A stretch of DNA of 64,000 nucleotides, from assembly GCA_016178705.1 (NCBI GenBank), contig JACOST010000028.1, forward strand, positions 4,951-68,950, given 5' to 3'. The notes under the pieces were generated by a model. The model was not told the origin of the DNA and did no database searches. It was given only the letters and a program-made list of their open reading frames with translations. Below, piece by piece: positions 1,521 to 35,860 of this stretch. The translations under genes and the position numbers were made by a program. The number at the start of each line of letters is the position of its first letter. The stretch's first letter is position 1. Source of the DNA: Deltaproteobacteria bacterium (GTDB taxonomy: Bacteria > Desulfobacterota > Binatia > HRBIN30 > JACQVA1).

Positions 1521-1525
1521 GAGAC

Positions 1526-2446: not shown

Positions 2447-2535
2447 GCGTCGCCCTCCGGCGTGACGGCGCGGGGATAGGAAGGCGATGTGTGCGATGAC
2501 ACCGAATCGGAGGGCGACGCATGCGTCGCCCCTAC
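2432..2535. repeat. Inverted pair of GC-rich palindromic REP-like units (GTAGGGGCGACGCATGCGTCGCCCTCCG / its reverse complement)
   Basis: Seen in sequence. The same unit recurs at four other loci. Confidence 0.85.
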
Positions 2536-2556
2536 AAGGACGGGCGGTGGTGCGTA

Positions 2557-4752: not shown

Positions 4753-4779
4753 GCGACGAGTGACCACGCGCGTCTTCAG

Positions 4780-4820
4780 ACAATCCGCAATCCCCAATCC
4801 GCAATCCGCAATCATCAATG
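4780..4820. repeat. AATCCGC heptamer array (about 5 units) at the actD/actE junction
   Basis: caatccgcaatccccaatccgcaatccgcaatcatcaatg. Confidence 0.8.
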
Positions 4821-6724: not shown

Positions 6725-9700
6725 CCTCGATCCTCATCGCCGAGTTCCGGATTGGGATTGCGCAGGCGCGCCAAGTAGGTCGTGCGCGGGCGCGTGTTCA
6801 GCTCGCCGAGCAGCGAGTAGTTGCGCGCCTCGGCCTTGAGTTTGGCGACGCGGCTCTGCGGATCGTTGATGTTGCCGAACACGATGGCCTCGGCCGGGCA
6901 GACTTGCTGGCAGGCGGTGACGATTTCGCCGTCGCGGATGCTGCGGTCCTCTTTCTGCGCTTCGATGCGCGCAAAATTAATCCGCTGCACGCAATACGTA
7001 CACTTCTCCATCACGCCACGGGTGCGCACGGTGACATCCGGGTTTTCCGCCATCTTGAGGCTCTCGACAGTTTGGTTCGAGTACAAGAACCAGTTGAAGC
7101 GGCGCACTTTGTAGGGACAGTTGTTCGAGCAATACTTAGTCCCGACGCAGCGGTTGTAGACCATGTCATTGAGGCCTTCGCTGCTGTGCGTGGTGGCGCC
7201 GACCGGGCAGACGACTTCGCACGGCGCGTTCTCGCAATGCATGCACGGGACCGGTTGATGATAGGTCGTCGGGTTGTCGAGGTTGCCGGCGTAGTAGCGA
7301 TCGACGCGTATCCAATGCATCTCGTGCCCGCGCGCAACCTCGGTTTTGCCGACGATCGGAATGTTGTTCTCCGCCTGACACGCAATGGCGCAGGCGTTGC
7401 ATCCGGTACACGAGTTCAGATCGATCGCCATGCCCCACGCGTAGCTGTCGTACGGATGATCGTTCGGGTACAGCGTCATGTCCGCCGGCGGCGGCTCGGC
7501 TAATTCCCGGATGAAGTCGGGATGCGAGCGATACTCCTCGATGGCGCCGGCCAGAGCGAGGTGGCGGCCTTCCATGCTGTGGTGGTGCTGCGTGCAGGCG
7601 AGCGGATACGTCTCGCCGGTTTTGCGCAGCGTAGCGCCGCTCGCCGACCACGGGGCGTTGGCCGTACGAATCGTGTAAGCGTTGAAGCCGCTGCCGTTGC
7701 CGACCCGCCCGGCGCGGGTGCGGCCGTGTCCAAAATGAATCGTGATGGCATCGGCGACGTGGCCGGGCATGATCCAGATCGGCGCTCGCACGCTGCGGCC
7801 GGCGTAGCGCACTTCGACGAGATCTTCGCTGGCGAGCGCAAGCCGCTCGGCGGTGGCCGGCGCGATCAACGCGGCGTTGTCCCACGTCATGCGCGTCAGC
7901 GACTTGGGCAGTTCCTGCAACCAGCCGTTGTTGGCGAAGCGTCCGTCGAAGATGGTCGCGTCCGGCCGGAAGATGATTTCCAACGTGTCGTCCTTGGGAT
8001 TGCGTTCGACGCGGTCGCGCGCCTTGTCCCAGTCGGGTCGCAGCGACACGGACTTCGCGGGCAACGCGCTGCCGGCCACAACGCCGTTGTGCAGCGACTC
8101 GCGCCAGAAGCGCTCGAAGTCGAGCGCCGGGTGTTGGGTCTTCCAATGGTCGCGCACGATGTCGTGGCTGGTGCGATCAGGGTGGTCCGACATCGCGGCC
8201 AGCACTTCGTGCGCGGTCTTGCCGCCGTAGAGCGGGGCGATCAGCGGCTGCATGATCGTGATCGTGCCGTCATAGGCGCGCGCGTCGCTCCAAGATTCGA
8301 GGCAGTGCGCCTCGGGGATGTGCCAATGGCACAGCTCCGACGTCTCGTCGTTGTAGAGGCTGAGGTGAACGCTCAGCGGAACCTTGCTCAGCGCGGCGCC
8401 GAAGGCGATGTCGGCCGGCGCGTTGAACACCGGGTTGCCGCCGAGGATCATCAATGCCGCGACCTTGCCGGCATCCATGTCGGTCACCAATTCGCGCAGC
8501 GAATCGGTTTGCGGGACCACGGAGGCCGAGACCGGATCGGTATGAATCACCGTCTGTCCGTGGTTGCCGAGTGCGTGATTGACGACGTGCACGAGCGTGT
8601 GCACGATCGGCGGCTGCTCATCGCCGGCGATGACAATGCTGGTGCCGCGATGACGTTGCAGGTCGGCCACGATCGTCGCGGTCCAGCGTGGGTGAGCGCC
8701 GAGCCCGCCCGGTGTCTGCACTGGCACGCCCAAAGCCGCCGCGATCGAGCGTGCGAAGTCTTCGATCTCGCCCGGCCGTAGGGCAAGTCGATGATCCGCC
8801 ATCGCGCCGGTGTTCGACGGTGTGCTCTCGACCACGTAGAGCCGATTCATTTCGCTGCGCGGGTTTTGCACGCGGCGTTTGCCGCTGAAGTCGCGTACGT
8901 AGCGCACGTGCGCGGGACCGCATGAGAGGAAGTCCGCGTCGAGCGCGAGCACAACCTCCGCCTTGTCGAAGCGATACTGCGTCTCGACGTTCTCGCCGAA
9001 GGCGCGCCGGGCGCCGGCATACACCTGATCGCGGTTCGCGGGTTCGTACTGGTGCCACTTTGCGAGTGGAAACTCGGTGAGCAGCGCGCGAATCTGGCTG
9101 GCGAGCGTCGGCGAGGTGATCGTCTCAGTGAGCAGCCGCAACCCCGCGCCGCGTTGCTCACGCTGCGCTTCCAACGCGGTGCGCAGGCTGGCGAGCAGCG
9201 CACTCCACGGCCGAATGTCGCCGACGGTGGTAATCACTTGCGAACGATCGGGATCGTAGAGCGTCAACACCGCGGCCTGCGCGAAGGAGTCGGTGGCACC
9301 GAGGCTGGCGGGATGATCCGGGTTGCCCTCGACCTTGGTCGGGCGCCCCATGTGGCTTTCGACCAGCACGCCCGACGCGATGCCGCCGAGGGGAATCGCG
9401 GTGGCGAAGAAGAGCGGTCGACCCGGAACGATCTGCTCGGGCTGTCGGACGTACGGCACGATCTTCTCTTCCGGCTGGCGCGTGCACGCGTTCAAGCCGG
9501 CAAGCGCGAGCGACGCGCCCATCAGTTTCAAAAAGTCGCGCCGCTCGATCCCGTTGCCGCTCTCGCCGAAGGCAGCGCTGTGGCGCGGGAACTCGTTGTG
9601 CAGGAACCACTCGAAGTCGTCGGTCTCGGCCAGCTCTTCGAGGCTGCGCCAGTATTGCTTCCCGGTGGCGTTGGCGAGCTTGCGCCGGATGGCGGCGAGA

Positions 9701-9768
9701 TCGACACGCTTCTTCATCGGTTCGCTGTCGCGCAGTCGTTCCGGTTGTGTGGTCAACTTCTCGTCCAT
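6721..9768 (-). CDS. actB: Alternative complex III subunit ActB: fused molybdopterin-oxidoreductase-like domain plus 4Fe-4S ferredoxin domain, Tat-exported
   Basis: Twin-arginine signal RRDFLKLMGASLALAG. C-terminal Cys clusters CTGCNACAIAC and CMHCENAPCEVVCP. Confidence 0.9.
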   Translation of the reverse strand: MDEKLTTQPERLRDSEPMKKRVDLAAIRRKLANATGKQYWRSLEELAETDDFEWFLHNEFPRHSAAFGESGNGIERRDFLKLMGASLALAGLNACTRQPEEKIVPYVRQPEQIVPGRPLFFATAIPLGGIASGVLVESHMGRPTKVEGNPDHPASLGATDSFAQAAVLTLYDPDRSQVITTVGDIRPWSALLASLRTALEAQREQRGAGLRLLTETITSPTLASQIRALLTEFPLAKWHQYEPANRDQVYAGARRAFGENVETQYRFDKAEVVLALDADFLSCGPAHVRYVRDFSGKRRVQNPRSEMNRLYVVESTPSNTGAMADHRLALRPGEIEDFARSIAAALGVPVQTPGGLGAHPRWTATIVADLQRHRGTSIVIAGDEQPPIVHTLVHVVNHALGNHGQTVIHTDPVSASVVPQTDSLRELVTDMDAGKVAALMILGGNPVFNAPADIAFGAALSKVPLSVHLSLYNDETSELCHWHIPEAHCLESWSDARAYDGTITIMQPLIAPLYGGKTAHEVLAAMSDHPDRTSHDIVRDHWKTQHPALDFERFWRESLHNGVVAGSALPAKSVSLRPDWDKARDRVERNPKDDTLEIIFRPDATIFDGRFANNGWLQELPKSLTRMTWDNAALIAPATAERLALASEDLVEVRYAGRSVRAPIWIMPGHVADAITIHFGHGRTRAGRVGNGSGFNAYTIRTANAPWSASGATLRKTGETYPLACTQHHHSMEGRHLALAGAIEEYRSHPDFIRELAEPPPADMTLYPNDHPYDSYAWGMAIDLNSCTGCNACAIACQAENNIPIVGKTEVARGHEMHWIRVDRYYAGNLDNPTTYHQPVPCMHCENAPCEVVCPVGATTHSSEGLNDMVYNRCVGTKYCSNNCPYKVRRFNWFLYSNQTVESLKMAENPDVTVRTRGVMEKCTYCVQRINFARIEAQKEDRSIRDGEIVTACQQVCPAEAIVFGNINDPQSRVAKLKAEARNYSLLGELNTRPRTTYLARLRNPNPELGDEDRG

Positions 9769-9778
9769 TGAGTGTCGC

Positions 9779-10435
9779 TCAGCGATGACACGTCGAGCAA
9801 TTGGTCAGATGCGCGACTTCGATGTTGTAGGTCTTGAGCAACGCGAGCCCCTGCGTGATCTGGTCACTCGGCGGCTGCCAGTTCATGTCAAACACGTGCT
9901 CGCGCGGTCGCAGGTATTGTTCCGGATGGCGATGGCAGTCGAGGCACCACTCCATCTGCAGCGAGGTGGCTTGCCAGGTGAGGTTCATGCGATCGATGCG
10001 CCCGTGGCACGAGCCACAGCCGATGCCCTTCTGCACGTGAATGCTGTGATTGAAGTAGACGAAGTCGGGCAGGTCGTAGACCTTGGTCCACTGGATCGAC
10101 CGGTCGGTGCGAAAACTCGCGCGCACCGGTTCGAGCATCGGGCTGTCGACCCAGATTTGGGCGTGGCAGTTCATGCAGGTTTTCGTCGGCGGCACGCCGG
10201 CGTACGCGGTTCGTTCGACGGCGGTGTGGCAGTAACGGCAATCGATCCCGAGCTCGCCGGCATGATGGCGATGGCTGAACGGAATCGGTTGCTCGCGCGC
10301 GACCCCCGCCCGGGTGACGTAGCCCGAACGATTGATGAGCGCCAAGCCCCACAAACCACCGGCGATGACGAAGGCCGCCCCGAAGATGCTCAACCGCGAG
10401 AAGGTATTCGTACTCGGATGGAAGACCTGCGGCAT
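9779..10435 (-). CDS. actA: Alternative complex III subunit ActA, pentaheme cytochrome c
   Basis: Five CxxCH motifs (CRYCH, CMNCH, CGSCH, CLDCH, CSTCH). N-terminal TM anchor. Confidence 0.9.
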   Translation of the reverse strand: MPQVFHPSTNTFSRLSIFGAAFVIAGGLWGLALINRSGYVTRAGVAREQPIPFSHRHHAGELGIDCRYCHTAVERTAYAGVPPTKTCMNCHAQIWVDSPMLEPVRASFRTDRSIQWTKVYDLPDFVYFNHSIHVQKGIGCGSCHGRIDRMNLTWQATSLQMEWCLDCHRHPEQYLRPREHVFDMNWQPPSDQITQGLALLKTYNIEVAHLTNCSTCHR

Positions 10436-17744: not shown

Positions 17745-19304
17745 TCAGTTCAGGTCGAAGTCTGTCAGGCCATTGGTTCCCGGCACACCGGCGGGCGACG
17801 ACGCATCCGCTTTGGCGATGATGATCCCGCCGAAGAAACCCTGAAAGGGGAGCGCTCCATAGTACGCGAGTTGCTGGCCGTCGTGGCTGTACGCCGCCAT
17901 GCTGTTGGGCAGGATGATGGTGCCCGGCTGCGGGGTCTCGCCCGATCCATTGGGGTTGATGAACCAGATAAGCTGTCCCGTCGGCCGAGTGGACTGGAAC
18001 GCGATGCGCTGACCGTCCGCGCGCAACACCGGGAACTCATCGCGGAAGCTGTTGTTGGTCACGCGGGTGATGTTGGTTCCGTCGGGATTCATCAGATAGA
18101 TCTCCAGGTCCTCGGCCTTTGAGTCGTGCGCGATGTGGAGGGTCGAGGCGAACACGATGCGATTGCCAACCCAATGCGGCGAGTTAAATCGCTCGCCCGC
18201 GTCCGGCAGGATCGTCGTCGAGCCCGACCCGTCGGCGTTGATGACCTTGATCCGACCACGCCCCACGCCGTCGACAAAGACGATGCGATTGCCGTCAGGA
18301 CTCCACGACGGCTGTCCCACGTCGGACTCGTCCGGCGTCAGGTCGGCGCGTCCGGAGCCATCGGCGTTCATGGCAGAGATATGGTAGCGCAAGCCGCCGT
18401 TTTGGTCGCGCACACTTGCCGACCAGACGATGCGCATCCCGTTGGGACTCCATTCCGGATCGCGGTCGAACGCATCGGTGGTGTTGGTGAGATTGACCTT
18501 CCCCGATCCGTCGGTGTTGAGCAGCACGATATCGTTGACCAAGCCCGCATCGGGAGCGGCGCACACGAGGCGCTGGCCGCCCACAGTGCCGGTGGTCGGG
18601 GTGCGAGTTGGCGACGGTGTCGGCGTTGGGCTGGAATTGCTCACCGGTGTCGTAGGCGTGGCAGTGGCAGGCAGACGGGAATGCGTCGGCGTCGGCGTGC
18701 TGCCGTCCCCGGCCGCCACGGTTCCAGAAAAGGGCTGGCCGTTGATCGATATCATCAAGCTGCCACCACCCCCACCCAGGCCTGGCAATGTGCCGCTGAT
18801 GCTCACGTCGATGGTCCCGCCGTTGCCGTCGGGAATACTGCCGGTGACCGTGAAGACGCCGGTGTCCAAGTTGACGTCGCCGGTGATCGGACCGGAGGCG
18901 ATCACGGCCGACGCGCCGCCGAAGAAACCGGCCGCTGCCGCGTCGCGAATAGCGAACGTCCCGGTGACGCCTCCCGTACCGCCCACAGTCAGCGTCGCGG
19001 TGGCGCGGCGCCCATCGTTGAGCATTGCGGCGCCGAAGAACTGGCCAGTGAACGGACAGCTGTTTAGGGCGTTGTTCACGGCGACAATCAGCTCTTCAAC
19101 AGTCACTTCATTGTCGTGACCGGCATCGAACGACGGACACTGCTGCAGCGCCGTTGTGCCGAGCGCGATGTTGACGCCCAGCACCAACTCCTCGACGGTG
19201 ACCGCTCCATCGCTGCTGCAGTCGCCGTCGCATGCGCCCGAGGCCCAGGCACTCGGCTGCGCCAACGACATCGCCAGTATCACCGCAACAATCAGCTTCA
19301 ACAT
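17745..19304 (-). CDS. Secreted multidomain protein. It has a signal peptide, a pair of dockerin/EF-hand-like Ca-binding repeats, a Gly-rich beta domain, a Thr/Pro linker and a TolB-like PD40 beta-propeller
   Basis: Signal peptide MLKLIVAVILAMSLA. Two DGDCSSDGAVTVEEL / DAGHDNEVTVEEL repeats. PTPTPSPTRTPTT linker. Repeated DPEWSPNGMRIV / QPSWSPDGNRIV PD40 blades. Strong RBS GGAGGAGG. Confidence 0.8.
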   Translation of the reverse strand: MLKLIVAVILAMSLAQPSAWASGACDGDCSSDGAVTVEELVLGVNIALGTTALQQCPSFDAGHDNEVTVEELIVAVNNALNSCPFTGQFFGAAMLNDGRRATATLTVGGTGGVTGTFAIRDAAAAGFFGGASAVIASGPITGDVNLDTGVFTVTGSIPDGNGGTIDVSISGTLPGLGGGGGSLMISINGQPFSGTVAAGDGSTPTPTHSRLPATATPTTPVSNSSPTPTPSPTRTPTTGTVGGQRLVCAAPDAGLVNDIVLLNTDGSGKVNLTNTTDAFDRDPEWSPNGMRIVWSASVRDQNGGLRYHISAMNADGSGRADLTPDESDVGQPSWSPDGNRIVFVDGVGRGRIKVINADGSGSTTILPDAGERFNSPHWVGNRIVFASTLHIAHDSKAEDLEIYLMNPDGTNITRVTNNSFRDEFPVLRADGQRIAFQSTRPTGQLIWFINPNGSGETPQPGTIILPNSMAAYSHDGQQLAYYGALPFQGFFGGIIIAKADASSPAGVPGTNGLTDFDLN

Positions 19305-19371
19305 CGCTGTTCCTCCTCCGCCCGTATCGGTCAGATCAATGGCTTCCGATGCAGAAGGCGTTCAAAGCGAC

Positions 19372-19397
19372 TGAACAGTGTTCAGTGGCGGGTGAAC
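19372..19397. promoter_or_regulatory. Candidate operator: palindrome TGAACAGTGTTCA plus a downstream GTGAAC half-site, ~70 bp upstream of the start of 17745..19304
   Basis: Seen in sequence. Paralogous arrangement to 24197..24223. Confidence 0.55.
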
Positions 19398-19413
19398 AGA
19401 TGCCGTTTGGTCG

Positions 19414-22400
19414 TCAGAACTGCCAGCGGATCGGCAACCGCGGATCGGGGCGGTAGCTGCAGTAGGTCCCGGTCTTGATGGTGGTGGCGAGGTAGCGCCC
19501 AAGGTGGGCATCGCCGTCGCTGATGCGCTTGATCGTGGTCTTGATGGCGCGGGTCACGTTCACCCGCGCACGTTCGGCATCGGCGGCGCGTGCGGAGCCG
19601 CGGTTACCCAAGCCTGCGCCGGCCGCCAGTTGGTCGGCGAACATCTCGATCTCTTCGCGCAGTTTGCTCGCGCGCCCGAGGTCGTTAAATCGAGTCGCCT
19701 CGTCCAATTGGTCGCGCAGGTCTTCGATGCGCTGCTTGTCGGTGGTGCGTGCGCGCCCTTCGATTGCTGTCGCTGATGCCGTCGCCGGCGCCGCTAAATC
19801 AGTGGCGTGGAACTCGCGGCCGGGATGCTGCAGCAGTTGGCTGAGACAGCGCAGCCCCTTGGAATCCTTGAGGCGCAACAGAGTCGCGCCGCTACCGACG
19901 CTCCAGTACTGTCCCTCGAAGTGAAAGAGGCCGCGCACGCTGTCGAGTTGGTTGTCCTTCGCAGGTGACTGCTGGTGGTCAGAACCCGCGTGCGGCTCGG
20001 GTTGCCTGCGTTTGCTCTGCGGGCTGATCGTCCGAGCGGAACGCACGAGCCGGAGGCCTCCGCTCGCCGCCGCAACCGGGATCGGCTCTTCCAGTTCAGC
20101 GACAGCATGATCGCCCTCGGTGCGTACATCCAAGGTGCGCAGCTGCATCGCGAGGCTGACCATGCCGAGCGCTTCCGCTGTCGCGAGTGCGTGCGCCGCC
20201 AGGTCGCGCGCGCGCAGATGATCGCCGACGCGGCCGCGCGTCAACAGCGCGCAAGTGTAGGCGTACTGCGTGCGAGCGAGCCATGGTGGGCCGTCCATGC
20301 GGGCGTTGCGCGCCAATGCATCCTCGAAGTGCCGCGCCGCATCGTCCCATCGTGCCATCGTCGCCGCGAGGATGCCGAGATAGTGAGTCGCGGCACCGAA
20401 GCTGACGCTGGCCGCGTAGGCAATGGTGCTATCGACGTAGGGGAGCAACAGATCGTACAAGATGGCCGCGCGTCGATTATCGCGCAGGTATGCGCAGACT
20501 TCGGACAAGTACGGCAACACGCCCAGACGGCGTTCGCGCTGGAGATCGGCAAACTCGTGGTGCGCGACCTGTTCGAACTCGTAGCGGGCTTCCGCCTCCT
20601 GGTCCAACTCGCGGTGGACAAGTGCGAGAAATGTGCGCGGCACAGGGCTGAAGGGATAGCGTTCGACGAACACGTGGAGCATCGGCAACTGTCCTTCCAG
20701 TTGGCGGAGCTCGCGCTGTGCCACGAATGCTTGCACGAGGGGGTTGAGCCGAATCTCGGCGCGCTCGGCGAGCGGCGTGGCTTCCTGCGCGAGGGCGATG
20801 GCCTCGGTCCACTGTCCGCGCCACAGCGCTCGCATTGCGCGCAGGTTCGCGCCCATCCAGCGGTAGCGCGAACGACCCAACGCGGCGGCGAGCGGAGGAT
20901 AGGTTGCCAGCTCGGCGTCCAAACGATCGCCGTCACCGCCGTTCATCAGATCGATCAGGCGCCACATGCGCCCTTGGATCGCCAGCTCGCGGTCGCCGAG
21001 GCGATCGCCGAGTTGCGTAATCTCGTCGGCGATGGTGAGCCGGTCGGCGAGGTAGTCCGACCGCCACAGCACGAAGTGCTGCGCACTCAGCACGTGCGCC
21101 AGCGTCACCGGGTCGGCAAGCTCGCGCGCCATCGCCAGCGCGTGTCCAACCAAGGTGATGCCGCGCTCTCGATCGGAGACCGCCAGTTCCGCTGCCAAGC
21201 GCGCCAGCAAGCGGGCGCGCACAGCGGTCGGATCGCTGCCGAGGCCGGCGAGCGCTTCTTCGATCAGGGCCGCGACGGTGGGATCGGCGATGGATTGCGG
21301 CGCGCCGACCCCGCGGTCGGCGAAGCCGAGGGCGGCGCGCGCGAGCAGCGCCGGCGCCGCTAGGCGTCGAGCGATGGTGGCGGCGTGCGCAAACGTCGCG
21401 CGCGCGTCTTGATCGCGCCCACTGCCGAGTTGCGCTTCGCCGAGTCCGAGGAGCACCTCGCACCCCGCGGCATCCGTTTGGGTGTCGGTGAGGGCGAGCG
21501 CTTCGAGGGCGCGCTCGAACTGAATGGCGGCCTCTTCGTACGCGAACAGCGCGGCGGCGCGCTCCCCGGCGCGCACCGCGTAGCTGATGGCCTGGTGCGG
21601 ATCGCCGAGCGGTGTCGCGTGGAGAAAATGGTGCGCGATCTCGGCGTAGTGGGGTGCGAGATCGGCTGCGTCGAGTCGCTCCAAAATCTCCGCGACCTGT
21701 TGATGCATGCGGGCACGTTCACTCGGCGACAGATCACTGTACAACGTCTCGCGGATCAGCGTGTGCTGGAAGCTGTACCGCGACGATGCTCCGGGGAGCG
21801 TGGTGACGATGGCATTCGTGGACGCCTCGCCCAACAGATCGAGGAGCTGCGCCGCCGGTCGTTCGCACATCGCTAGCAGTGGTGCGAAGTCGAACTCTCG
21901 CCCGAGTACTGCGGCGATGTTGAGAACACGACGGCAGGCCGGTGAGAGTGGGCGCAAGCGCTGGCGGATCGCGTCGCCGACACCGTGCGGAATGGGCAAT
22001 CCATCGGGCGGGATCTCGGACAACCGAGCGGCGTGTTGCACGACCAATGTGCGCACCACTTCGTCGATGAAGAGCGGATTGCCTTCCGTTGTCTGATGCA
22101 CGGCTGCGACCACCGCGCGCGATGGCGCCAGCGCGAAGCCAGCCGTAATGAAGCGCGCGACATCATCGGCCGACAAGCCGCCGAGCGGCACGCGATGTCC
22201 TTCGCGGGCAATCGCCGCCAGCGTCTGCGCACACTCCGGGCGCGACGGCATCTCGATGTCGCGATACGTCCCGGCGATCAGCAGGTGCGCATCGCGCAGC
22301 TCGCGGGCGATGAACTGGAGCAGCAGGAGCGACGGTTGATCGGACGCGTGGAGGTCGTCGAGGATGAGCACAAGTGGACGCGCCGCGCCCGCACGCTTGA

Positions 22401-22926
22401 GCAGCCCACCGACGGCGCCGAACTGAGCGAAGCGCGCGTGTTCGGACGATAGCGCGGGTGGTGTCGGCGCCGGAAGATCCGGTTGCCACTCGATCAACTC
22501 GGGCACCAATTGCGCGATCAGCCCGGCCGTATCGCCGAGCAATTCGGTGCGCGCGGCGGGACCACGATCCCGCAGCACAGCGCGAATGATCTGCACCCAC
22601 GGCCAGTATGCGGGCGCTCCGCCACCTTCCCAACAGCGGCCCCAGAGAACCTGCGCGCCGCGCCGGGCGGCTTCGGCGGTCAGTTCCTCCGCGAGTCGCG
22701 TCTTGCCGATGCCGGGCTCGCCGGCGATGAGGAACACCCGCCCGCGCCCTGCCGCGGCATCGGCCAGTCCGGAGTAGAGTTCAGTGAGTTCGCGCTCGCG
22801 GCCAACAAACGATCGCGCCGTGAGCCGATGGAGCGCCTGGTTTGATTCGTTTTCCACCGGTTGTCCCGCGGCGTGCACTACTCTCGCCGCGGTCGCCTGT
22901 GTAGGTGCGGCGGCCGGGTTGGTCAA
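19414..22926 (-). CDS. Large AAA(AAA_16-like)-TPR regulator with an uncharacterised conserved C-terminal domain (paralog 1)
   Basis: Walker A LIAGEPGIGKTRLAEEL. Walker B LVLILDDLH. Long TPR/helical region. C-terminal ~200 aa (FEGQYWSVGSGATLLRLKDSKGLRCLSQLLQHPGREFHATDL...TTIKTGTYCSY) matches no domain I recognise, but is conserved in the downstream paralog. Confidence 0.8.
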   Translation of the reverse strand: MTNPAAAPTQATAARVVHAAGQPVENESNQALHRLTARSFVGRERELTELYSGLADAAAGRGRVFLIAGEPGIGKTRLAEELTAEAARRGAQVLWGRCWEGGGAPAYWPWVQIIRAVLRDRGPAARTELLGDTAGLIAQLVPELIEWQPDLPAPTPPALSSEHARFAQFGAVGGLLKRAGAARPLVLILDDLHASDQPSLLLLQFIARELRDAHLLIAGTYRDIEMPSRPECAQTLAAIAREGHRVPLGGLSADDVARFITAGFALAPSRAVVAAVHQTTEGNPLFIDEVVRTLVVQHAARLSEIPPDGLPIPHGVGDAIRQRLRPLSPACRRVLNIAAVLGREFDFAPLLAMCERPAAQLLDLLGEASTNAIVTTLPGASSRYSFQHTLIRETLYSDLSPSERARMHQQVAEILERLDAADLAPHYAEIAHHFLHATPLGDPHQAISYAVRAGERAAALFAYEEAAIQFERALEALALTDTQTDAAGCEVLLGLGEAQLGSGRDQDARATFAHAATIARRLAAPALLARAALGFADRGVGAPQSIADPTVAALIEEALAGLGSDPTAVRARLLARLAAELAVSDRERGITLVGHALAMARELADPVTLAHVLSAQHFVLWRSDYLADRLTIADEITQLGDRLGDRELAIQGRMWRLIDLMNGGDGDRLDAELATYPPLAAALGRSRYRWMGANLRAMRALWRGQWTEAIALAQEATPLAERAEIRLNPLVQAFVAQRELRQLEGQLPMLHVFVERYPFSPVPRTFLALVHRELDQEAEARYEFEQVAHHEFADLQRERRLGVLPYLSEVCAYLRDNRRAAILYDLLLPYVDSTIAYAASVSFGAATHYLGILAATMARWDDAARHFEDALARNARMDGPPWLARTQYAYTCALLTRGRVGDHLRARDLAAHALATAEALGMVSLAMQLRTLDVRTEGDHAVAELEEPIPVAAASGGLRLVRSARTISPQSKRRQPEPHAGSDHQQSPAKDNQLDSVRGLFHFEGQYWSVGSGATLLRLKDSKGLRCLSQLLQHPGREFHATDLAAPATASATAIEGRARTTDKQRIEDLRDQLDEATRFNDLGRASKLREEIEMFADQLAAGAGLGNRGSARAADAERARVNVTRAIKTTIKRISDGDAHLGRYLATTIKTGTYCSYRPDPRLPIRWQF

Positions 22927-22972
22927 GAGACGCGAGTAGCAACAAGGAAGCGGGCAGGCGTAAACGAGAAGA

Positions 22973-22998
22973 GTCGGCCCGCCTTGCGGCGGGCCGAC
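22973..22998 (-). terminator. Putative intrinsic terminator downstream of the second dockerin-like gene
   Basis: Perfect hairpin gtcggcccgcc-ttgc-ggcgggccgac. On the minus strand it is followed by TCTTCTCGTTT. A second GC hairpin lies at 23006-23040. Confidence 0.45.
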
Positions 22999-23056
22999 CG
23001 GTTCGCGGCTCGGCGCACTTCGGGAGAGCGCGCCGAGCCGTGAATAGGAAGATTCG

Positions 23057-24160
23057 TCAGTCCTTCGTCAAAGCGATCGCGAGCGCCAGCGGATGAAAGG
23101 GATCGCTGAACGAAACCTTTGAATACTGGCCGGCCAGACCGCCGGGGAAGAGCGAGTTCATAGTGAGGTTCTCGTTCGAGCTCCCGCCCGTCTTGTTGTA
23201 GAAAAATGCCCGCGGGCTCGCCACGGTTGCAATCACCGATGCGGTCGAAAGGAGATTCTTCTTGAGATCGGTGATCTTCAACTGCCCGCTGACCACTTCA
23301 ACTTTGATCTGCACTTGCCGATGATCGTTGGTCAGGTCGTTGTCGGCGTGACCGCTCCACGTACCGATCAAGTCGGCCGCGATACCGGGCGGATTGATGA
23401 GGCCGGTGGTCGGCGTCGCCGTCTGCGTCGGCAGATTGGTGTGCGTCGGGACCGGAGTGTTGGTCGGTATCAGTGACGTTGGCGTGATGGTCGGCGTCGG
23501 TGTTTGCGTCGCCGTCGGCGGGTGTGTTCGCGTCGGCGTAGGAGTGCTGCCGTCGCCGGTGACGATCGAACCCGTGAACACGGTACCGTCCAGGTTGACG
23601 CTGAGTGACCCGCCGCCGTGGAGACCGGGGAACGTACCGCCGAGATGGACGTTGTGAGTGCCGTCGCCGTCGGTGAAGCTGCCGTCGATGCTAAACGTGC
23701 CATTGTCGAGGTCGACCGAGCCGCTCAGCGACACGATCGCGATCACTGCGGCCGCGTTGCCCTGATCGAAGAGCGACGCCGACGCGGCTGAACGGATCGT
23801 CATGGTGCCGGTGACTTGGCCGTTGCCTTGTGCGACCAGATTGATGATGCCGGTCTGGCCATTGGCGAGCGCGACGGTACCGTAGAACTGGCCGGTGAAC
23901 GGACACGTCCCCAAGGCGTTGTTGACGGCGAGCACTAGCTCTTCAACTGTGACAGACTGGTCGTTGTTACTGTCGAATTGGTTGCACTGGGTGACCAAGA
24001 TGCTGCCGAGAGCGATGTTGACGCCCTGCACCAGCTCTTCGACCGTGACGACTCCGTCACTGTTGCAATCCCCATCGCATCCGGCGGCCAGCGCGCGTGG
24101 GCCGGTTGCTGCCAGTCCCAGCGCGGCCAATACGATCAACGTCCCGAATCGCTTGATCAT
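23057..24160 (-). CDS. Secreted protein with an N-terminal dockerin/EF-hand-like repeat pair, a Gly-rich beta domain, a Thr/Pro linker and a different ~130-aa C-terminal domain (paralogous N-terminal half to 17745..19304)
   Basis: Signal peptide MIKRFGTLIVLAALGLAATG. CDGDCNSDGVVTVEEL and DSNNDQSVTVEEL repeats. TPTPTRTHPPTATQTPTPT linker. RBS GGGGAGGA. Confidence 0.75.
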   Translation of the reverse strand: MIKRFGTLIVLAALGLAATGPRALAAGCDGDCNSDGVVTVEELVQGVNIALGSILVTQCNQFDSNNDQSVTVEELVLAVNNALGTCPFTGQFYGTVALANGQTGIINLVAQGNGQVTGTMTIRSAASASLFDQGNAAAVIAIVSLSGSVDLDNGTFSIDGSFTDGDGTHNVHLGGTFPGLHGGGSLSVNLDGTVFTGSIVTGDGSTPTPTRTHPPTATQTPTPTITPTSLIPTNTPVPTHTNLPTQTATPTTGLINPPGIAADLIGTWSGHADNDLTNDHRQVQIKVEVVSGQLKITDLKKNLLSTASVIATVASPRAFFYNKTGGSSNENLTMNSLFPGGLAGQYSKVSFSDPFHPLALAIALTKD

Positions 24161-24196
24161 GATGATCCTCCCCAGTCGGGGGGGCGTAACAAATCG

Positions 24197-24223
24197 TTGA
24201 ACAGTGTTCAATTCGGTTGAACG
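24197..24223. promoter_or_regulatory. Candidate operator: perfect palindrome TTGAACAGTGTTCAA plus a downstream TTGAAC half-site, ~40 bp upstream of the start of 23057..24160
   Basis: Seen in sequence. Near-identical to the site at 19372..19397. Confidence 0.55.
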
Positions 24224-24310
24224 AATGAAAATTTTGGCTTGTAGGTGTGCAATCATCGCTCGCCATCTCGTGGCTTGCACAAGAAGAATTGAGCGATCTC
24301 CCCGCTCGTC

Positions 24311-24378
24311 ATTCCGGCGAAAGCCGGAATCCAGGCACGGACCCCACGCGTCGCCTGGATACCGGCCTTCGCCGGTAT
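24311..24378 (-). terminator. Two tandem hairpins downstream of regulator paralog 2
   Basis: attccggcgaaagccggaat at 24311-24330 and ataccggccttcgccggtat at 24359-24378. Confidence 0.35.
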
Positions 24379-24434
24379 GACGACCCACTGTGAAAGCGCG
24401 TTGAGCAGGGACAAACGCGCCCAAACAATTCCAG

Positions 24435-27400
24435 CTACAAGCGCCAGCTCTTCGGCCAACGTGGATCGGGTGTGTAGGAACAGAACGTGCCGGTCTTGAT
24501 GGTGGTGCTGAGATGCCGGCCCAACGCTGAATCGCCGTCGGCAATTCGTTTCAGCACCGCTTTGATGGCGCGGGTGACGTTGACGCGAGCGCGTTCGGTT
24601 GCCGATGGCCCGCTGCGTGTACGACCGTGCAGACCAACCGCCCGCGCGAGTTCGCGCGTCAGAAACTCGATCTCGTTTTGTGTGCTGGTAATCCGCCCGA
24701 GGTCGTTGAAGCGGGTGGCTTCTTCCAACTCTGCGCGAAGACTTTGCAACTGGCGCTTGTATGCCGCCCGTGCTTGCGGGTCCAGCAGTGCCCCAAGGTC
24801 GCCGAGATTGCCGGCGCGCAACCCGAGTTGTTGCCGTTGCTCGTCGCTGAGTTGGTCGATCTGCGCCGCGGCGGGAGTCACACTGTCGGGCTTGTGAGCG
24901 ATCAAGTCGAGCGCATGAAATTCCCGGCTTGGGTGGCGCAAGAGATGTGCGATGTAGCGCAGACCCTTGGTGTCCTTGAGGCGGAGTGGGGCCATCCCTT
25001 CGCCGACGGTCCAGAACTCCCCTTCCAGACGAAAGCTGCACTCGGCAGTCGTAGCGCCGGTGGTCGCCGGGGAATGCTGCGGTGGAGCCGCGGTGATGGC
25101 TCGCCCGCGGTGTTTCGCCGGGAAACTCAGCACGCGGCCGCGAGTGGAAGCGCCCGACGGCTCCGCATCGTGCAGCGCGGAGGCATCGCCGCTGGCGAGC
25201 GCGCGGGTGATCGGTTCGCGCTGCTGCGCCGATGACGGCTCCAGACGCGCTACGTCGGCCAATGCTTGCGCGCGCTCGGCGAGCGGCGTCATCCCCAACT
25301 CGCGCGCGGTGTCGTGGGCGTGCTGCAACAGATCGCGCGCGTGTTCGCGGGAATTCGCGGCACGGAGCGCGGGCCCCGCATCCACTAGCATGCGAGCGTA
25401 GGCGTACTCGGTGGCGGCCACCGCCGGCCGGCCTCCGGCGGCTAGACTGCGCGCGCGCGCATCTTCGAAGTGTTTCGCGGCCTCATCCCATCTCTCCAAG
25501 GTTGTGGCCAGGAGACCGAGGGCGTGGAAGCCCGGGCCGAAGCAGTGCCGCGGACCGAACGAGATGAAGCGCGAACCAAACCGGAACAGTCGCTCATACA
25601 GCAGGGCCGCCGCGTGGCGATCGCCGAAGTGCGCGCACAGCTCCGCCAACCACGGCAGCATCGGTAGGAGCGCGTTGGTGCGCACGAGATCGACGAAGTC
25701 GTCGGCCGCCAGGCGACCGTACTCGGCCCGGGCCTCGGCGTCGTGTCCCTGGTCGATCTGTATCAACGCCAGCGCGCAGCGGATGATCGGCACGTGCGGC
25801 ATCTGTTCGACCCCGCGCCGCGCGATCATTTCCGCGACCTCGTACTGGCCGAGCGCCCGCTTCGCCACGTAGGCCTGAAAGCCGACGCTGCCCAGCGCAG
25901 TGTCGTCGCGCACCCGCTCGGCGAGTGCGCCAATCTCTTGGCCAAGCGCGTCGCTTTCGGCGAAGCGCCCGAGCCACAGGGCACGCATCGCTCGCAGCAT
26001 GATGGTGTTGCTGAGGTAGCGGGGTTGGCGCAGCTCGTCGGCGAGTCGACTGCACGCGTCGAGTTCGCGTTCCCACTCGCCGCCACCCACTCCCATCTCA
26101 ATGACGTCGAGCAACCGCCAGGTGTGCGCTTGCAGTGCAAGCTCACGATCGTCGGCACTCTCGGCGAGCTGAATGCCCTCGTTGGCGAGGCTGAGCCGCT
26201 CGTCGACGTCGGGCGAATCCCACAGCGCGAAATGGCGCGCATTGACGGCGTAGGCCAAAGCCGCCGACTGGCCGCAGCGGCGCGCCATCTCGACCGCTTG
26301 CCGGCTCAGTGCGGCGCGCCGCTCCTCGGCGTCCGAGAAGTACAGTTCGGCCGCCAGCCGCGCCAGTATCCGTGCGCGCAGAGGATGGTCGTGCTCGGCC
26401 AACCGCACCAGCGCTTCTTCGAGCGCGGCCACCAGAACCGGGTCGACGACTCCACCGCGCGGCAGTCCGTGACCGATGCCGCCGAGCGCGAGCACCGCCC
26501 GCGCGAACGAGTCGGACGCATTCGCGTACCGTGCGCGCTCTGCCGCACGCAGAAACGTCTCCCGCGCCTCGCTGGTGTGCCAGGCGCGCGCCTGCGCGTT
26601 GCCCAACGCCAGCAGCAGCTCGAACTCCCGCTGGGGGTCTGGGGCCCCGAGGACGAGGGCGTCGAGAGTGCGTGTGTAGTGCGCTGCCGCGTCTTCGTAC
26701 GCCAACAAGTCCGCCGCGCGGCGCCCGGCGCGCTCACCGTAGGTGATGGCCTTGGTCAGGTCGCCGGCGGGCGCGGCCTGGAGAAAATGATGGGCGAGCT
26801 CGGCGACATGGGCGTCGGGGTCGGTGGCCGACAGCGTCTCCAACACCTCGCCGATGCGTTGGTGCAAACTCAAACGTTGTGCCGCCGGCAGATCGTCGTA
26901 CACGGTCTGCCGAATCAGCATGTGCGTAAAACTGTACCGAGTGGTGATCCCCGGTAGCTTGGTGACGATGCCCGCGGTGATCGCTTCGCTGAGGATGTCG
27001 AGGACGTCGGGTGCGGGCAGCTCGGACACCCGTTGCAGCGTCAGCAGATCGAAGTCGCGACCGATCACCGCGGCTATGCTCACCACGCGCTGACAGGTCG
27101 CCGACAGCGGTCGCAGCCGCTCGTGCGTGACTTCACGAATCCCGGCTGGAATCCTCAGGCGCTCCGCGGTCGCATCAGCGAGTGTCAGGTCGCGTCCTTC
27201 TGCCAGCAGCCAGCGCACGACTTCATCGACGAAAAATGGATTGCCGTCAGTGGTGCGGTGCAGGGTCGTGATGACCGCGGGCGGTGGCGCGATCACAAAC
27301 GTGCGTTGAATAAAATGAGCGACGTCGGGTTCGGGCCAGCCGCTGAGTGGTAGGCGGTGGCCGTTGCGGGCCACGTCGCTCAGCAGGCGCGCGCACTCAG

Positions 27401-28166
27401 GTTGACGTCGCACCTCGACCTCACGGTAGGTGCCGATCAGCAGCACTCGCGCGCTGCGCAGTTCCCGTGCGGCGAACTGCAGCAACAACAGCGACGGGTC
27501 ATCGGCCGCGTGCAGATCGTCGAGCAGGATCACGAGCGGCTGGTCCACTGCCACCCGCTGCAGGAACGTGGTCGTCGCATCGAACAACGGAAAGCGGGCC
27601 TGTTCGGACTCGATCGTCGACGCCTGCGATCCGGCCGGAATGCCGGCCACGCGCTGTCGCAGGTCGGGCACCAGGGACGCGATGCACGACGCCCCGCCGC
27701 CGAGATGGTGCGCAAGTGCGTGTGGATCACGGTCGCGGATCAACGCGCGCAGGATCTGGATCCACGGCCAAAAGGCCGGCGCGCCGCCGCCTTCCCAACA
27801 CCGGCCCCACAGCACCTGCGCGCCACCGGCGCTCGCCGTTGCGGCGAGTTCTTCCGCCAGCCGCGTCTTGCCGATGCCCGGCTCGCCGACGATGAGGAAG
27901 ACGCGGCCGCGCCCGTTCAGCGCGTCGTCGAGTCCGGTGCGTAGCTCTGTCAGCTCGCGGTCGCGGCCGACGAAGGCGCGCGTGCCCGGGCGATCGGGGT
28001 CGGCGCTGGTGGTTGTCTGCCGAGGGTCACTCACGTGGGGTTGGTTAGTACGTGATCGGACGCATACGTCAAGAGACGAATGCCCGAGTCGCCGACAATC
28101 GCGGACGCGCTGTCCGTGGTTTCGCTTTCGGCGGGCTCGCGCTAGGGATGCGAGCCACAGTGCCAC
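24435..28166 (-). CDS. Large AAA(AAA_16-like)-TPR regulator with the same uncharacterised C-terminal domain (paralog 2). The true start may be the in-frame GTG at ~28034
   Basis: LIVGEPGIGKTRLAEEL, LVILLDDLH and TPR region are collinear with paralog 1. The C-terminal FRLEGEFWTVGEGMAPLRLKDTKGLRYIAHLLRHPSREFHALDL...TTIKTGTFCSY matches paralog 1. Confidence 0.8.
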   Translation of the reverse strand: MALWLASLARARRKRNHGQRVRDCRRLGHSSLDVCVRSRTNQPHVSDPRQTTTSADPDRPGTRAFVGRDRELTELRTGLDDALNGRGRVFLIVGEPGIGKTRLAEELAATASAGGAQVLWGRCWEGGGAPAFWPWIQILRALIRDRDPHALAHHLGGGASCIASLVPDLRQRVAGIPAGSQASTIESEQARFPLFDATTTFLQRVAVDQPLVILLDDLHAADDPSLLLLQFAARELRSARVLLIGTYREVEVRRQPECARLLSDVARNGHRLPLSGWPEPDVAHFIQRTFVIAPPPAVITTLHRTTDGNPFFVDEVVRWLLAEGRDLTLADATAERLRIPAGIREVTHERLRPLSATCQRVVSIAAVIGRDFDLLTLQRVSELPAPDVLDILSEAITAGIVTKLPGITTRYSFTHMLIRQTVYDDLPAAQRLSLHQRIGEVLETLSATDPDAHVAELAHHFLQAAPAGDLTKAITYGERAGRRAADLLAYEDAAAHYTRTLDALVLGAPDPQREFELLLALGNAQARAWHTSEARETFLRAAERARYANASDSFARAVLALGGIGHGLPRGGVVDPVLVAALEEALVRLAEHDHPLRARILARLAAELYFSDAEERRAALSRQAVEMARRCGQSAALAYAVNARHFALWDSPDVDERLSLANEGIQLAESADDRELALQAHTWRLLDVIEMGVGGGEWERELDACSRLADELRQPRYLSNTIMLRAMRALWLGRFAESDALGQEIGALAERVRDDTALGSVGFQAYVAKRALGQYEVAEMIARRGVEQMPHVPIIRCALALIQIDQGHDAEARAEYGRLAADDFVDLVRTNALLPMLPWLAELCAHFGDRHAAALLYERLFRFGSRFISFGPRHCFGPGFHALGLLATTLERWDEAAKHFEDARARSLAAGGRPAVAATEYAYARMLVDAGPALRAANSREHARDLLQHAHDTARELGMTPLAERAQALADVARLEPSSAQQREPITRALASGDASALHDAEPSGASTRGRVLSFPAKHRGRAITAAPPQHSPATTGATTAECSFRLEGEFWTVGEGMAPLRLKDTKGLRYIAHLLRHPSREFHALDLIAHKPDSVTPAAAQIDQLSDEQRQQLGLRAGNLGDLGALLDPQARAAYKRQLQSLRAELEEATRFNDLGRITSTQNEIEFLTRELARAVGLHGRTRSGPSATERARVNVTRAIKAVLKRIADGDSALGRHLSTTIKTGTFCSYTPDPRWPKSWRL

Positions 28167-33408: not shown

Positions 33409-34128
33409 ATGAACACGCGATGGCAAGGCTGGCGTAACGCTTCGCGGAACGCTGCAGCGACCGGCTGGATCGAACTCTCGCACCGTTTGCACGCTGATCT
33501 GGCGCGGATTCCTCTGTTCGACAAGCCGGACATTCGCCGGCGCATGAGCATGCCGCAGGATCCGTTCAATCTCACCGAGATTCACATGGCCTGTCACTTC
33601 GGCACGCATGTCGATGCGCCGATTCACTTCATTCCCGACGGTCCGGCGATGCACGAGATTGCGCCCGATCGCTTGTGCGGAACCGGCGTCGTCTGGCGGA
33701 TCGAGTGCGAGCAGTACGGCGTGATCGACGCCGACGCGTTCGAGTGCGCGCGCCCGGTCGTGCAAGCGGGCGACATCGTGCTGCTCGACACCGGCTGGGC
33801 GCAACACGTCGAGTCGGACCGTTACGGTGAGCACCCGTGCCTCAGCGTTACCGCCGCGCAGTGGCTGGTGGATCACGACGTCAAACTCCTCGGCGTCGAC
33901 GTGATGACTCCCGATCTCGCCGTCAACCGGCGACCGCCGGGCTTCGATTGGCCGGTCCATCACGTCTTGCTGAGCCAGGGCGTGTTGATTGCGGAGAATC
34001 TGATGAACCTCACGTCGTTGGTGGGCCAGCGAATCGAAGTCATGTTTCTGGCGCTCAACATCGAAGGCGCCGACGGCGCTCCGGCCCGGGTGGTCGCGCG
34101 GCGTGCGACTGCTGCGACCGCGGAGTGA
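33409..34128 (+). CDS. Cyclase family protein (kynurenine-formamidase-like)
   Basis: HFGTHVDAPIH motif. LLGVDVMTPD. Confidence 0.75.
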   Translation: MNTRWQGWRNASRNAAATGWIELSHRLHADLARIPLFDKPDIRRRMSMPQDPFNLTEIHMACHFGTHVDAPIHFIPDGPAMHEIAPDRLCGTGVVWRIECEQYGVIDADAFECARPVVQAGDIVLLDTGWAQHVESDRYGEHPCLSVTAAQWLVDHDVKLLGVDVMTPDLAVNRRPPGFDWPVHHVLLSQGVLIAENLMNLTSLVGQRIEVMFLALNIEGADGAPARVVARRATAATAE

Positions 34129-34205
34129 CAAGGGAAAGAAAATCGCACTCACAGGTCAACCAAAGGCACGGCTCGTTCGTCAGTGTAGGCAACGGAGGTA
34201 GCGAC

Positions 34206-34715
34206 ATGACGAAACGCAAGATGCTAATGATTGGCCTGGTAGCTGTTGGTATCTACGCAGCGGCCGCCGACGCGCAGCCGATCCCACCGGGGCCACCGAT
34301 GGAACACCATCATGAGGGACCCCATTGTGGGCACATGAAGGGTGGAGGTCCGGGACGGCTCATCCACTTGCTGCTGCGGTCCACTGATCTGACGGCGGAC
34401 CAAGAGACTCAAGCGCATCAGATTCTCGACGCGGGTCGCGTTGCTGTGCAGGACCTTTTCACCCAGTTGCATCAAGCCGATAACGATCTGGCGAATCTGC
34501 TACTCGGTGCGCAAGATGTGCTACCCGCTGCGTTGACGGCACAACAAGCGCTCATCACCCAGTTACAACAGCAGTTGGCACAACACGAAGCCGCCACCGT
34601 CTTGGCGATCCGCGCCATTTTGACGCCGGAACAGTTGGCCCAAGCGAGCGCCGCGTTGAGTGACATGGAGGCCCGGCACGCCGACGAATCGCGCCGCTTC
34701 GGAAATGGCGGTTGA
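34206..34715 (+). CDS. Periplasmic LTXXQ-motif protein (CpxP/Spy/ZraP family) with a His-rich segment
   Basis: Signal peptide. MEHHHEGPHCGHMKGGGPG. LTADQ / LTAQQ / LTPEQ motifs. RBS GGAGGT. Confidence 0.75.
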   Translation: MTKRKMLMIGLVAVGIYAAAADAQPIPPGPPMEHHHEGPHCGHMKGGGPGRLIHLLLRSTDLTADQETQAHQILDAGRVAVQDLFTQLHQADNDLANLLLGAQDVLPAALTAQQALITQLQQQLAQHEAATVLAIRAILTPEQLAQASAALSDMEARHADESRRFGNGG

Positions 34716-35335
34716 CCTGCACGCGTGTCGCAAGCGACGACGAGCGGCATTCAATTCCGTGTGCGGAGGACGGAACGGACGAGAGCGTGAAAGCGGCGGC
34801 AGCGAAAGATCAGTCAGACTACGACGCGCTCTTCCGGACGCACCATGCGCGCGTCGTGCGCTTGTGCCGACTCTTGCTCTCCGATCCAGACGAGGCTGAT
34901 GACGTGACGCAGGAGGTTTTTCTCAAATTGTTCCAAGCCTGCGAAAAATTGTCTCAAGCCTACGAACTGGGCGATCGTGAGATTGCCTGGGGAGCGTGGC
35001 TCACCCGGGTTGCCGTCAACGGGTGCCGGGATCGGCGACGCTCGGGCTGGTGGAAGTGGTGGCGCGAACGGCACGAGGAGTTTGCGGAAGCCAACCTACC
35101 GTCGGCGACACTCAACCCCGAGCAGCAGACGCTGAGTAACGAAGCCCGGCGCGGAATCTGGCGATGCTTCCGACAGTTGTCGGCGCGGCAGCAAGAAGTG
35201 TTCGCCTTGCGCCAATTGGAAGGCTGGTCGACCGAAGAGGTAGCGCAAACGCTCGGGCTGAGCCCAGGCAGCGTCAAGCGTCATCTCTATCGAGCGGTCC
35301 ATCACATGCGCACCGGGCTGGGAGGTTACCGATGA
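34712..35335 (+). CDS. ECF (sigma-70 family) RNA polymerase sigma factor (start uncertain)
   Basis: Region 2 DVTQEVFLKLF. Region 4 LSARQQEVFALRQLEGWSTEEVAQTLGLSPGSVKRHLYRA. Confidence 0.8.
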   Translation: MTCTRVASDDERHSIPCAEDGTDESVKAAAAKDQSDYDALFRTHHARVVRLCRLLLSDPDEADDVTQEVFLKLFQACEKLSQAYELGDREIAWGAWLTRVAVNGCRDRRRSGWWKWWRERHEEFAEANLPSATLNPEQQTLSNEARRGIWRCFRQLSARQQEVFALRQLEGWSTEEVAQTLGLSPGSVKRHLYRAVHHMRTGLGGYR

Positions 35336-35832: not shown

Positions 35833-35860
35833 GGACGAACAAGATGGAGGAGATTGTCAC

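Follow-up and report, generated by a model that had tools for sequence, protein, structure and literature searches.

Large SARP regulators consist of an N-terminal OmpR-type winged helix-turn-helix directly joined to a helical BTAD domain, followed by a NOD ATPase and TPRs, and OmpR-type winged helices typically bind head-to-tail on tandem direct repeats. In AfsR, composed of an OmpR-type DNA-binding domain, NOD and TPR, ATP binding relieves the inhibition of the DNA-binding domain, and the site overlaps the −35 element (PMC10936776). The α2-α3 loop of PhoB and PmrA is a so-called 'transactivation loop', the acidic patch of which touches sigma region 4 (PMC3973317). Here we analyze the conserved C-terminal module of two neighboring AAA_16/TPR regulators encoded in a stretch of 64,000 nucleotides (nt) from a Deltaproteobacteria bacterium of the Binatia lineage (contig JACOST010000028.1, positions 4,951 to 68,950), referred to as the window. 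We describe the module as a variant of the OmpR/PhoB winged-helix output domain that is new, unannotated and very large as a family; the way in which it is combined with STAND-like ATPases is related to that of the AfsR/SARP and MalT/LAL regulators. We consider it probable that both tails represent a split OmpR/PhoB-type winged-helix DNA-binding output domain of AAA_16/TPR regulators.

The two regulator genes are located as follows:

19414..22926, minus strand: regulator A, AAA_16 ATPase with TPR-like region and C-terminal module; translation of the open reading frame (ORF) gives 1170 amino acids (aa), stop codon at 19414..19416
24435..28166, minus strand: regulator B, AAA_16 ATPase with TPR-like region and C-terminal module; 1243 aa if the earliest possible start codon is used

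Regulator B may in fact start further downstream. Pairwise alignment of the two proteins showed 45% identity across the entire length. Pfam searches placed the AAA_16 domain at residues 40-217 in A (E 1.9e-26) and 65-244 in B (E 1.1e-25), and the Walker A motif GEPGIGKT is present in both sequences. The ATPase is followed in both by a long helical TPR-like region, for which Pfam matches to TPR_12 (in A at residues 846-918, E 3e-5) and TPR_19 stayed under the cut-off. Both tails contain the identical strings EATRFNDLGR and ERARVNVTRAIK as well as the common blocks GExW..LRLKD.KGLR..LL.HP.REFHA.DL and TTIKTGT.CSY.PDPR.P..W. With the variable linker taken out, the module cores of A and B are 59% identical. 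A previous reading of the window by a model from the letters alone (the sequence-only reading) had proposed two AAA-TPR regulators with a common conserved tail; both ORFs indeed exist and the quoted blocks were found in each. The interval it gave for the second copy, 24435..25050, does contain the tail but is not codon-aligned, the in-frame tail spanning 24438..25049 with the stop codon at 24435..24437.

The overall arrangement resembles AfsR and the large SARPs in its P-loop AAA_16 ATPase plus TPR region. It differs in that the modules of the window are C-terminal and give no BTAD or Trans_reg_C match in Pfam, and in that the helical element of the module sits inside the winged helix and not after it. 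TPR_MalT matches in 6 of 74 sampled family members recall the MalT/LAL regulators, whereas the tail has no LuxR/GerE helix-turn-helix match in Pfam or NCBIfam and is predicted to contain β-sheets and a wing. The AAA_16-TPR cores also align with the NCBIfam model of the TOMM kinase/cyclase fusion (TIGR03903; E 3.6e-51 and 6.9e-54), and some family members carry a cyclase or kinase. This match is partial, covering the ATPase/TPR part only: with 174 and 183 bits the window proteins fall far short of the 705.75 bits set as cut-off, they lack a kinase or cyclase, and their tail is not covered.

Structure prediction divides each module into two halves separated by an insert:

19792..19938, minus strand: module A, N-terminal half; β-sheet (VRGLFHFE / YWSVGS / LRLK), α1 (KGLRCLSQLLQ), short β (EFH), α2
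19600..19791, minus strand: module A, insert of about 64 aa; flexible linker, antiparallel two-helix hairpin including EATRFNDLGR, GLGNRG loop
19417..19599, minus strand: module A, C-terminal half; recognition helix α3 (AERARVNVTRAIKTTIKRI), α4, β-hairpin wing (YCSY / IRWQ)
24894..25046, minus strand: module B, N-terminal half; β1-β3, α1 (KGLRYIAHLLR), β, α2
24603..24893, minus strand: module B, insert of about 97 aa; low-confidence linker with GDLGALLD motif, helical hairpin, GLHGRTR arm
24438..24602, minus strand: module B, C-terminal half; α3 (ATERARVNVTRAIKAVLKRIADG), α4, wing (FCSY / KSWR)

The hairpin helices were predicted at residues 60-87 and 91-112 of the 178-aa AF2 model of tail A and at residues 91-113 and 117-138 of tail B. 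The predicted order of elements is an N-terminal antiparallel β-sheet, α1, a short β, α2, α3, a short α4 and, at the C-terminus, a wing formed by a β-hairpin, which is the fold and element order of the OmpR/PhoB effector domain (Trans_reg_C; PhoB, OmpR, BaeR, GlnR, CadC, ToxR). Between 81 and 91 residues of the tail models superpose on solved OmpR/PhoB effector domains at 2.4-3.4 Å. Since each half of the core comprises fewer than 60 residues, the aligned residues necessarily span both sides of the insert, suggesting that the tail is an OmpR/PhoB-type winged helix split between α2 and α3. On the strength of these models, which like the family anatomy described below come from tool results, an OmpR/PhoB-type fold is highly likely for both tails. 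In the models the ERARVNVTRAIK segment is the recognition helix and the KGLRYLA segment is α1. Residues R153, R155, R160, K163, K167 and R168 form a basic surface on α3, and the GRxR arm of the insert is likewise basic. A DNA-binding function of the module appears likely to us.

Several statements of the sequence-only reading can be placed against this anatomy. A winged-helix DNA-binding domain is very probably correct as judged from the predicted models, and an output-type module on a STAND-like AAA_16/TPR ATPase is supported. The segment KGLRYLAxLLxxPGxEFHALDL had been likened to the recognition-helix region; it corresponds to the α1-β-α2 scaffold, while the recognition helix is ERARVNVTRAIKxxLKRI. 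What had been called a charged coiled segment belongs to the conserved helical-hairpin insert in the α2-α3 loop and does not link two separate domains. The statement that the tail follows no LuxR, OmpR or SARP pattern holds in so far as no curated model matches it, but its models superpose on OmpR/PhoB effector domains. At the level of fold the tail largely matches an established family, although no match to a curated hidden Markov model (HMM) accompanies it. The proposed novelty is only partly borne out: it applies to the inserted variant, for which no curated model was found and of which literature searches returned no description, nor one of the Binatia regulators, but not the fold, since both tail models superpose almost fully on OmpR/PhoB effector domains.

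At the sequence level the relation to known families is far weaker. No significant match of the tail was found in Pfam-A, NCBIfam or PDB sequences, and PF00486 matched neither the full proteins nor tail A nor, even at E≤10, 24 cores with the insert spliced out. No OmpR-family protein was returned from the PDB sequences with either the native tail or the spliced profile. The sole Pfam/NCBIfam match was DUF6416 (E 0.036; 6 of the 24 spliced cores at E≥0.023), which was rejected as lying well under its cut-off. Coiled-coil matches of the native tail in the PDB were at chance level. An armadillo-repeat match of the spliced profile in the PDB (E 1.6e-9) resulted from summed weak GL..La.LL matches, with a best single i-E of 0.03, and was rejected as a repeat artefact because the predicted β-sheets do not fit a repeat made up of α-helices only. 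A Foldseek search of the model against the PDB, as the sequence-only reading had proposed, remained without a significant match (best E 0.14), the alignment probably being interrupted by the insert; the list of matches is nevertheless dominated by OmpR/PhoB DNA-binding domains.

We also compared the family with a profile of the effector domains of eight annotated E. coli K-12 paralogs (OmpR, PhoB, KdpE, CpxR, BaeR, CreB, ArcA, PhoP), chosen since the fetched loci gave only one canonical Trans_reg_C domain (L028). In hhalign the spliced family profile matched this profile with a score of 20.1 (P 0.0064), α1, the 'hPG+' turn and α2 being in register; this score was reached by none of 200 column shuffles but by 32 of 200 block shuffles and is thus not robust to block shuffling. 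The E. coli effector-domain HMM scored above 0 bits in 219 of 258 real cores, compared with 29 reversed, 18 shuffled and 115 half-swapped ones. In these alignments α1, α2 and α3 were in register, in the best cases with α3 on α3. Members in which the module is the output of a REC response regulator have a REC domain that scores best against OmpR-family (and PleD) models, and the full-length CreB and PhoB models of NCBIfam run collinearly from REC to about α2 of the module (P0066, residues 5-187 to profile positions 3-171 of 228; P0069, residues 5-178; P0120, residues 5-192). Together these signals suggest divergent homology with the OmpR/PhoB domain, short of proof. Since the homology is weak, we file the domain as OmpR/PhoB-like in fold and not as a demonstrated member of PF00486. 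If, alternatively, the domain were truly novel and without kin among known DNA-binding folds, its OmpR-like superposition would reflect either convergence or a prediction artefact. The missing Pfam, NCBIfam and PDB sequence matches, the Foldseek result and the block-shuffled controls are all compatible with this explanation, which we nevertheless hold to be very improbable.

In the locus L028 a module-bearing regulator adjoins an ORF on the minus strand (3..2615, at least 871 aa) whose N-terminus resembles a canonical Trans_reg_C domain (phmmer with the PhoB effector domain, E 1.4e-6). Large OmpR-type regulators of the classical and of the insert-bearing kind accordingly coexist in one genome.

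The conserved block is not a chance similarity of two neighboring proteins. A word-indexed search with tail B recovered 1,369 relatives at E≤1e-3; in the best 120 of them 98% of the query is aligned, at about 50% identity. When 1.84 billion cluster representatives were searched exhaustively with an HMMER profile, 16,593 proteins matched at E≤1e-3, of which 12,696 reached E≤1e-10 and 6,143 reached E≤1e-30, revealing a very large family. In species-representative genomes at least 503 module loci were detected. Among the loci listed are Candidatus Binatia/Binatus (several paralogs per genome), Chloroflexota, Methylomirabilota and Thermodesulfobacteriota as well as Actinomycetota (Conexibacteraceae, Baekduia, Thermoleophilaceae). 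If our reading is correct, more than 16,000 clusters (50% identity) labelled 'hypothetical' or 'ATP-binding protein' would become assigned transcription factors. Annotation would thereby improve for Binatia, Thermoleophilia, Chloroflexota and similar poorly known phyla of soil and groundwater.

The sequence-only reading had described a C-terminal domain, but the module is not confined to that end. In many relatives it precedes the same ATPase-TPR core or is joined to a REC, GAF, kinase or cyclase domain; it is found N-terminal before AAA_16, C-terminal after REC, cyclase or zinc-ribbon domains, or nearly alone. In 79 genome loci two main forms were distinguished, the module followed by about 950 aa and, as in the window, about 950-1,100 aa followed by the module, the proteins comprising about 1,100-1,300 aa. 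Partner domains in 74 diverse representatives were TPR (21), AAA_16 (20), REC (3), GAF (2) and α/β-hydrolase (2), besides Ser/Thr kinase, cyclase, DUF899 and double zinc ribbon. Partners of this kind typically serve signal input and thus mark the module as the output domain. Another recognized DNA-binding domain was present in only one of the 74 sampled proteins (PadR).

In three loci (L037 3796..7545, L018 5884..9459 and L048 5857..9444) the matches to the module HMM extend well beyond the length of a single module (in one ORF of 1250 aa from residue 92 to 1245), which hints at a module at both ends or a second partial copy. Tandem pairs of module-bearing regulator genes are present in other genomes too (L054, 910..4329 and 4333..7968; L072, 2836..6603 and 6576..9845; L045, 2277..3170 and 5248..6564). 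Several genomes thus carry tandem module-bearing regulators like the window, suggesting recurrent local duplication of the cassette.

The insert sets the module apart from the OmpR/PhoB domain. Instead of a transactivation loop of about 10 residues the module contains an insert of about 65-95 residues with a helical hairpin; it also has an extra short helix ahead of the wing and an invariant Cys in the wing. This Cys (FCSY in the first strand of the wing, C190 in tail B numbering) is invariant family-wide, like W13 and W202, with a possible redox or structural role. The insert was found in all 261 measurable members, with 79-107 aa between the reference points in α2 and α3. Its parts are the acidic segment DAGExLD, a hairpin of two antiparallel helices and the basic arm GLGGRxR, which enters α3. 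Many of the most conserved residues of the family fall inside it: D84, A85, G86, L89, D90, A93, Y97 and R100 as well as G139, L140, G142, R143, R145 and S149 are kept at ≥90%. The family-conserved motifs are DAGExLD, A..Y..R, heptad-like leucines of the hairpin and AvGLgGR.R..S directly ahead of ERAR.

Since the insert is located at the site where PhoB touches sigma region 4, it probably serves dimerization, contact to RNA polymerase, or both; by this analogy it would be a rebuilt polymerase contact, a dimerization element or a combination of the two. Dimerization driven by the insert would fit the two-fold symmetry of the candidate site described below. The insert might even turn the OmpR-type winged helix into a self-dimerizing reader of a symmetric TGAACAnTGTTCA palindrome with its own acidic DAGExLD polymerase contact replacing the transactivation loop, although we regard this stronger version as rather unlikely. 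If true, the module would constitute a distinct class of self-contained 'plug-in' activator domain, which Binatia, Actinomycetota, Chloroflexota and other soil phyla would join to many sensor types, driving a regulon of exported proteins. If the main reading is correct, an insert at the PhoB-type polymerase contact offers a natural experiment in rebuilding that contact.

The conservation pattern can also be read differently. A domain with an OmpR-like fold might dock on RNA polymerase/sigma or on its own ATPase-TPR core without reading DNA sequence-specifically, and the neighboring DNA element would be recognized by something else. Paralogous DNA-binding domains normally diversify their recognition helices, which makes the strong conservation of α3, wing and insert across phyla (about 50% identity among top matches; ERAR, TG..C.Y.P and W202 kept at ≥90%) unusual. 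For highly conserved stretches of the insert (residues 78-85 and 141-144) disorder is predicted, as in partner-induced folding, and the position of the insert in the polymerase-contacting loop points in the same direction. On the other hand, the fold together with the basic α3 surface and the GRxR arm is typical of DNA binders, the module is the sole candidate DNA-binding domain in REC-, GAF- and AAA/TPR-fused regulators, and a palindrome is enriched next to the genes and covaries with α3, as detailed below. We therefore consider such a docking module improbable and retain the DNA-binding output domain as the preferred reading.

During inspection of the regions downstream of both regulator genes we found a composite element with a perfect palindrome, TGAACAcTGTTCA, each time ahead of a gene for a secreted protein:

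19357..19398, minus strand: candidate operator/promoter element A, TGTTCA-N8-TGAACAcTGTTCA-N6-TTGAACGCC
24183..24223, minus strand: candidate operator/promoter element B, CGTTCA-N7-TGAACAcTGTTCA-N6-TGTTACGCC
17745..19304, minus strand: putative target A, secreted; dockerin/EF-hand-like N-terminus CDGDCxSDGxVTVEEL and PD40 β-propeller (Pfam E 2.9e-19)
23057..24160, minus strand: putative target B, secreted paralog with the same N-terminal repeats; ATG at 24160 with a GGAGG ribosome-binding site

The palindrome is identical at 19372..19384 and 24198..24210, giving the general element (T/C)GTTCA-N7-8-TGAACAcTGTTCA-N6-T(T)GAACGCC. Element A begins 16 nt past the stop codon of regulator A, its palindrome lying 30 nt past the stop and ending 68 nt before the ATG at 19304. 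The palindrome of element B is located 225 nt past the stop codon of regulator B and ends 38 nt before the ATG at 24160. The window holds these two palindrome sites only, even when two mismatches are allowed, each between a regulator and the next gene. In comparison to the simple tandem repeats of OmpR/PhoB domains the candidate site is an inverted repeat with a third half-site. Both secreted proteins open with tandem CDGDCxSDGxVTVEEL...GVNIALG repeats, the EF-hand match of target B being weak (Pfam E 2e-4, under cut-off).

The distribution of the site was assessed in 933 kb of module-selected loci plus the window, defining a zone of 250 nt after the stop codon of C-terminal-type regulators that makes up 1.2% of the sequence. 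This zone contained all four perfect sites; it also held 6 of the 8 sites found when one mismatch was allowed and 9 of the 25 found when two were allowed (binomial P 2e-8 to 1e-11). The genes downstream of the sites vary by locus and encode dockerin-like proteins, methyltransferase and lipoproteins. The dyad is kept by symmetric changes in both arms in L014 (TAAACAcTGTTTA, twice) and L071 (TGAACGtCGTTCA). Of 44 regulators, moreover, that of L014 alone lacks Arg/Lys160 in α3 (NVTRAI to NVTLSI), and alongside this R160L exchange the G at position 2 is gone from all three of its half-sites (G-to-A). This is an Arg/guanine-type covariation observed in a single lineage.

In a reverse search metagenomes were scanned for the composite motif, yielding 78 loci, 49 high-GC and 29 low-GC. 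A module-bearing ORF ends 1-564 nt upstream in 7 of the 49 high-GC matches, and dockerin-like genes follow downstream in at least 8 of the 49. These results suggest that the element is a regulon-type promoter motif upstream of exported proteins, enriched near the regulators but not exclusive to them. Three observations weigh against recognition by the module: about 40 of the 49 high-GC instances have no adjoining module gene even where room exists, half-sites are not enriched near N-terminal-type genes, and members of the N-terminal type or from actinobacteria have no such site nearby. Since most metagenome instances lack an adjoining module gene, we rejected the motif as a marker exclusive to the regulators.

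A serious rival for the assignment of the site is an alternative sigma factor or another regulator. TGAACAnTGTTCA-N6-TTGAACGCC could be a promoter of an extracytoplasmic function (ECF)-type sigma factor, or else an operator at which an unrelated global regulator of exported proteins binds, its proximity to the module genes reflecting a common regulon. The spacing between the two parts is fixed, the element is located 38-100 nt upstream of start codons, and GAAC...CG(C/T)C resembles ECF −35/−10 motifs. No sigma-70-like promoter was found in either intergenic region, an ECF sigma/anti-sigma pair is encoded within the window (34712..35832), and the many high-GC instances without a module gene would be readily explained. 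However, compensatory changes on both arms keep the symmetry in L014 and L071, which a −35 element does not need, and the loss of the position-2 G in three half-sites coincides with R160L in the adjoining regulator. Furthermore, an ECF-like ORF is present near the motif in one locus pair only, and the enrichment after the stop codon is about 30-fold or more. A sigma promoter or foreign operator is thus possible but somewhat doubtful, and we tentatively regard the composite element as the binding site of the module, an assignment with slightly less than even odds. If so, the candidate operator together with the R160L/G-to-A covariation provides a concrete binding hypothesis, and the secreted dockerin/EF-hand-like proteins would form a putative regulon.

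For DNA binding, site and role of the insert we infer the following sequence of events. The AAA_16/TPR core, like that of AfsR and MalT, would be a switch gated by nucleotide and ligand, which upon switching may release or oligomerize the module. The module would then bind TGAACAnTGTTCA-N6-TTGAACGCC just downstream of its own gene, α3 reading GAACA-type half-sites, and could thereby control the adjoining gene for the secreted protein. The insert would supply dimerization and/or the polymerase contact.

The region is organized as two tandem cassettes in the order regulator B, secreted protein B, terminator, regulator A, secreted protein A:

22972..22999, minus strand: strong intrinsic-terminator-like hairpin, 12-bp stem with 10 G-C pairs and T-rich tail, parting cassette B from regulator A

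Between the stop codon of the regulator and the palindrome, cassette B has a spacer (24253..24434; 225 nt) much longer than the 30 nt of cassette A, and hairpins resembling terminators are located in it at 24291..24307 and 24431..24447. The two cassettes may therefore differ in how far transcription continues past the regulator gene.

The same dockerin-like N-terminus was seen downstream of the motif in at least 11 other loci, among them L003, L004, L089, L103, L108, L110, L125, L128 and L165. The 29 low-GC contigs (0.32-0.57) with a 6-nt spacer carry a near-identical TGAACAnTGTTCA-N6-GAACGCC, e.g. TGAACATTGTTCAATGACTGAACGCC; they include L090, L092, L095, L100, L101, L104, L112, L114, L118, L122, L124, L127, L129, L133, L138, L141 and L154. 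This class of motif is apparently distinct from the high-GC element associated with the regulators.

The ECF-type sigma factor of the window and its putative zinc-finger anti-sigma factor are encoded on the plus strand at 34712..35335 and 35164..35832; the pair might be an alternative reader of the GAAC...CGCC element but lies 7-10 kb from it. They are flanked at 33837..34715 and 35819..36358 by genes for two small periplasmic proteins rich in 'LTADQ...' helices, all of these assignments being made by reading the translations.

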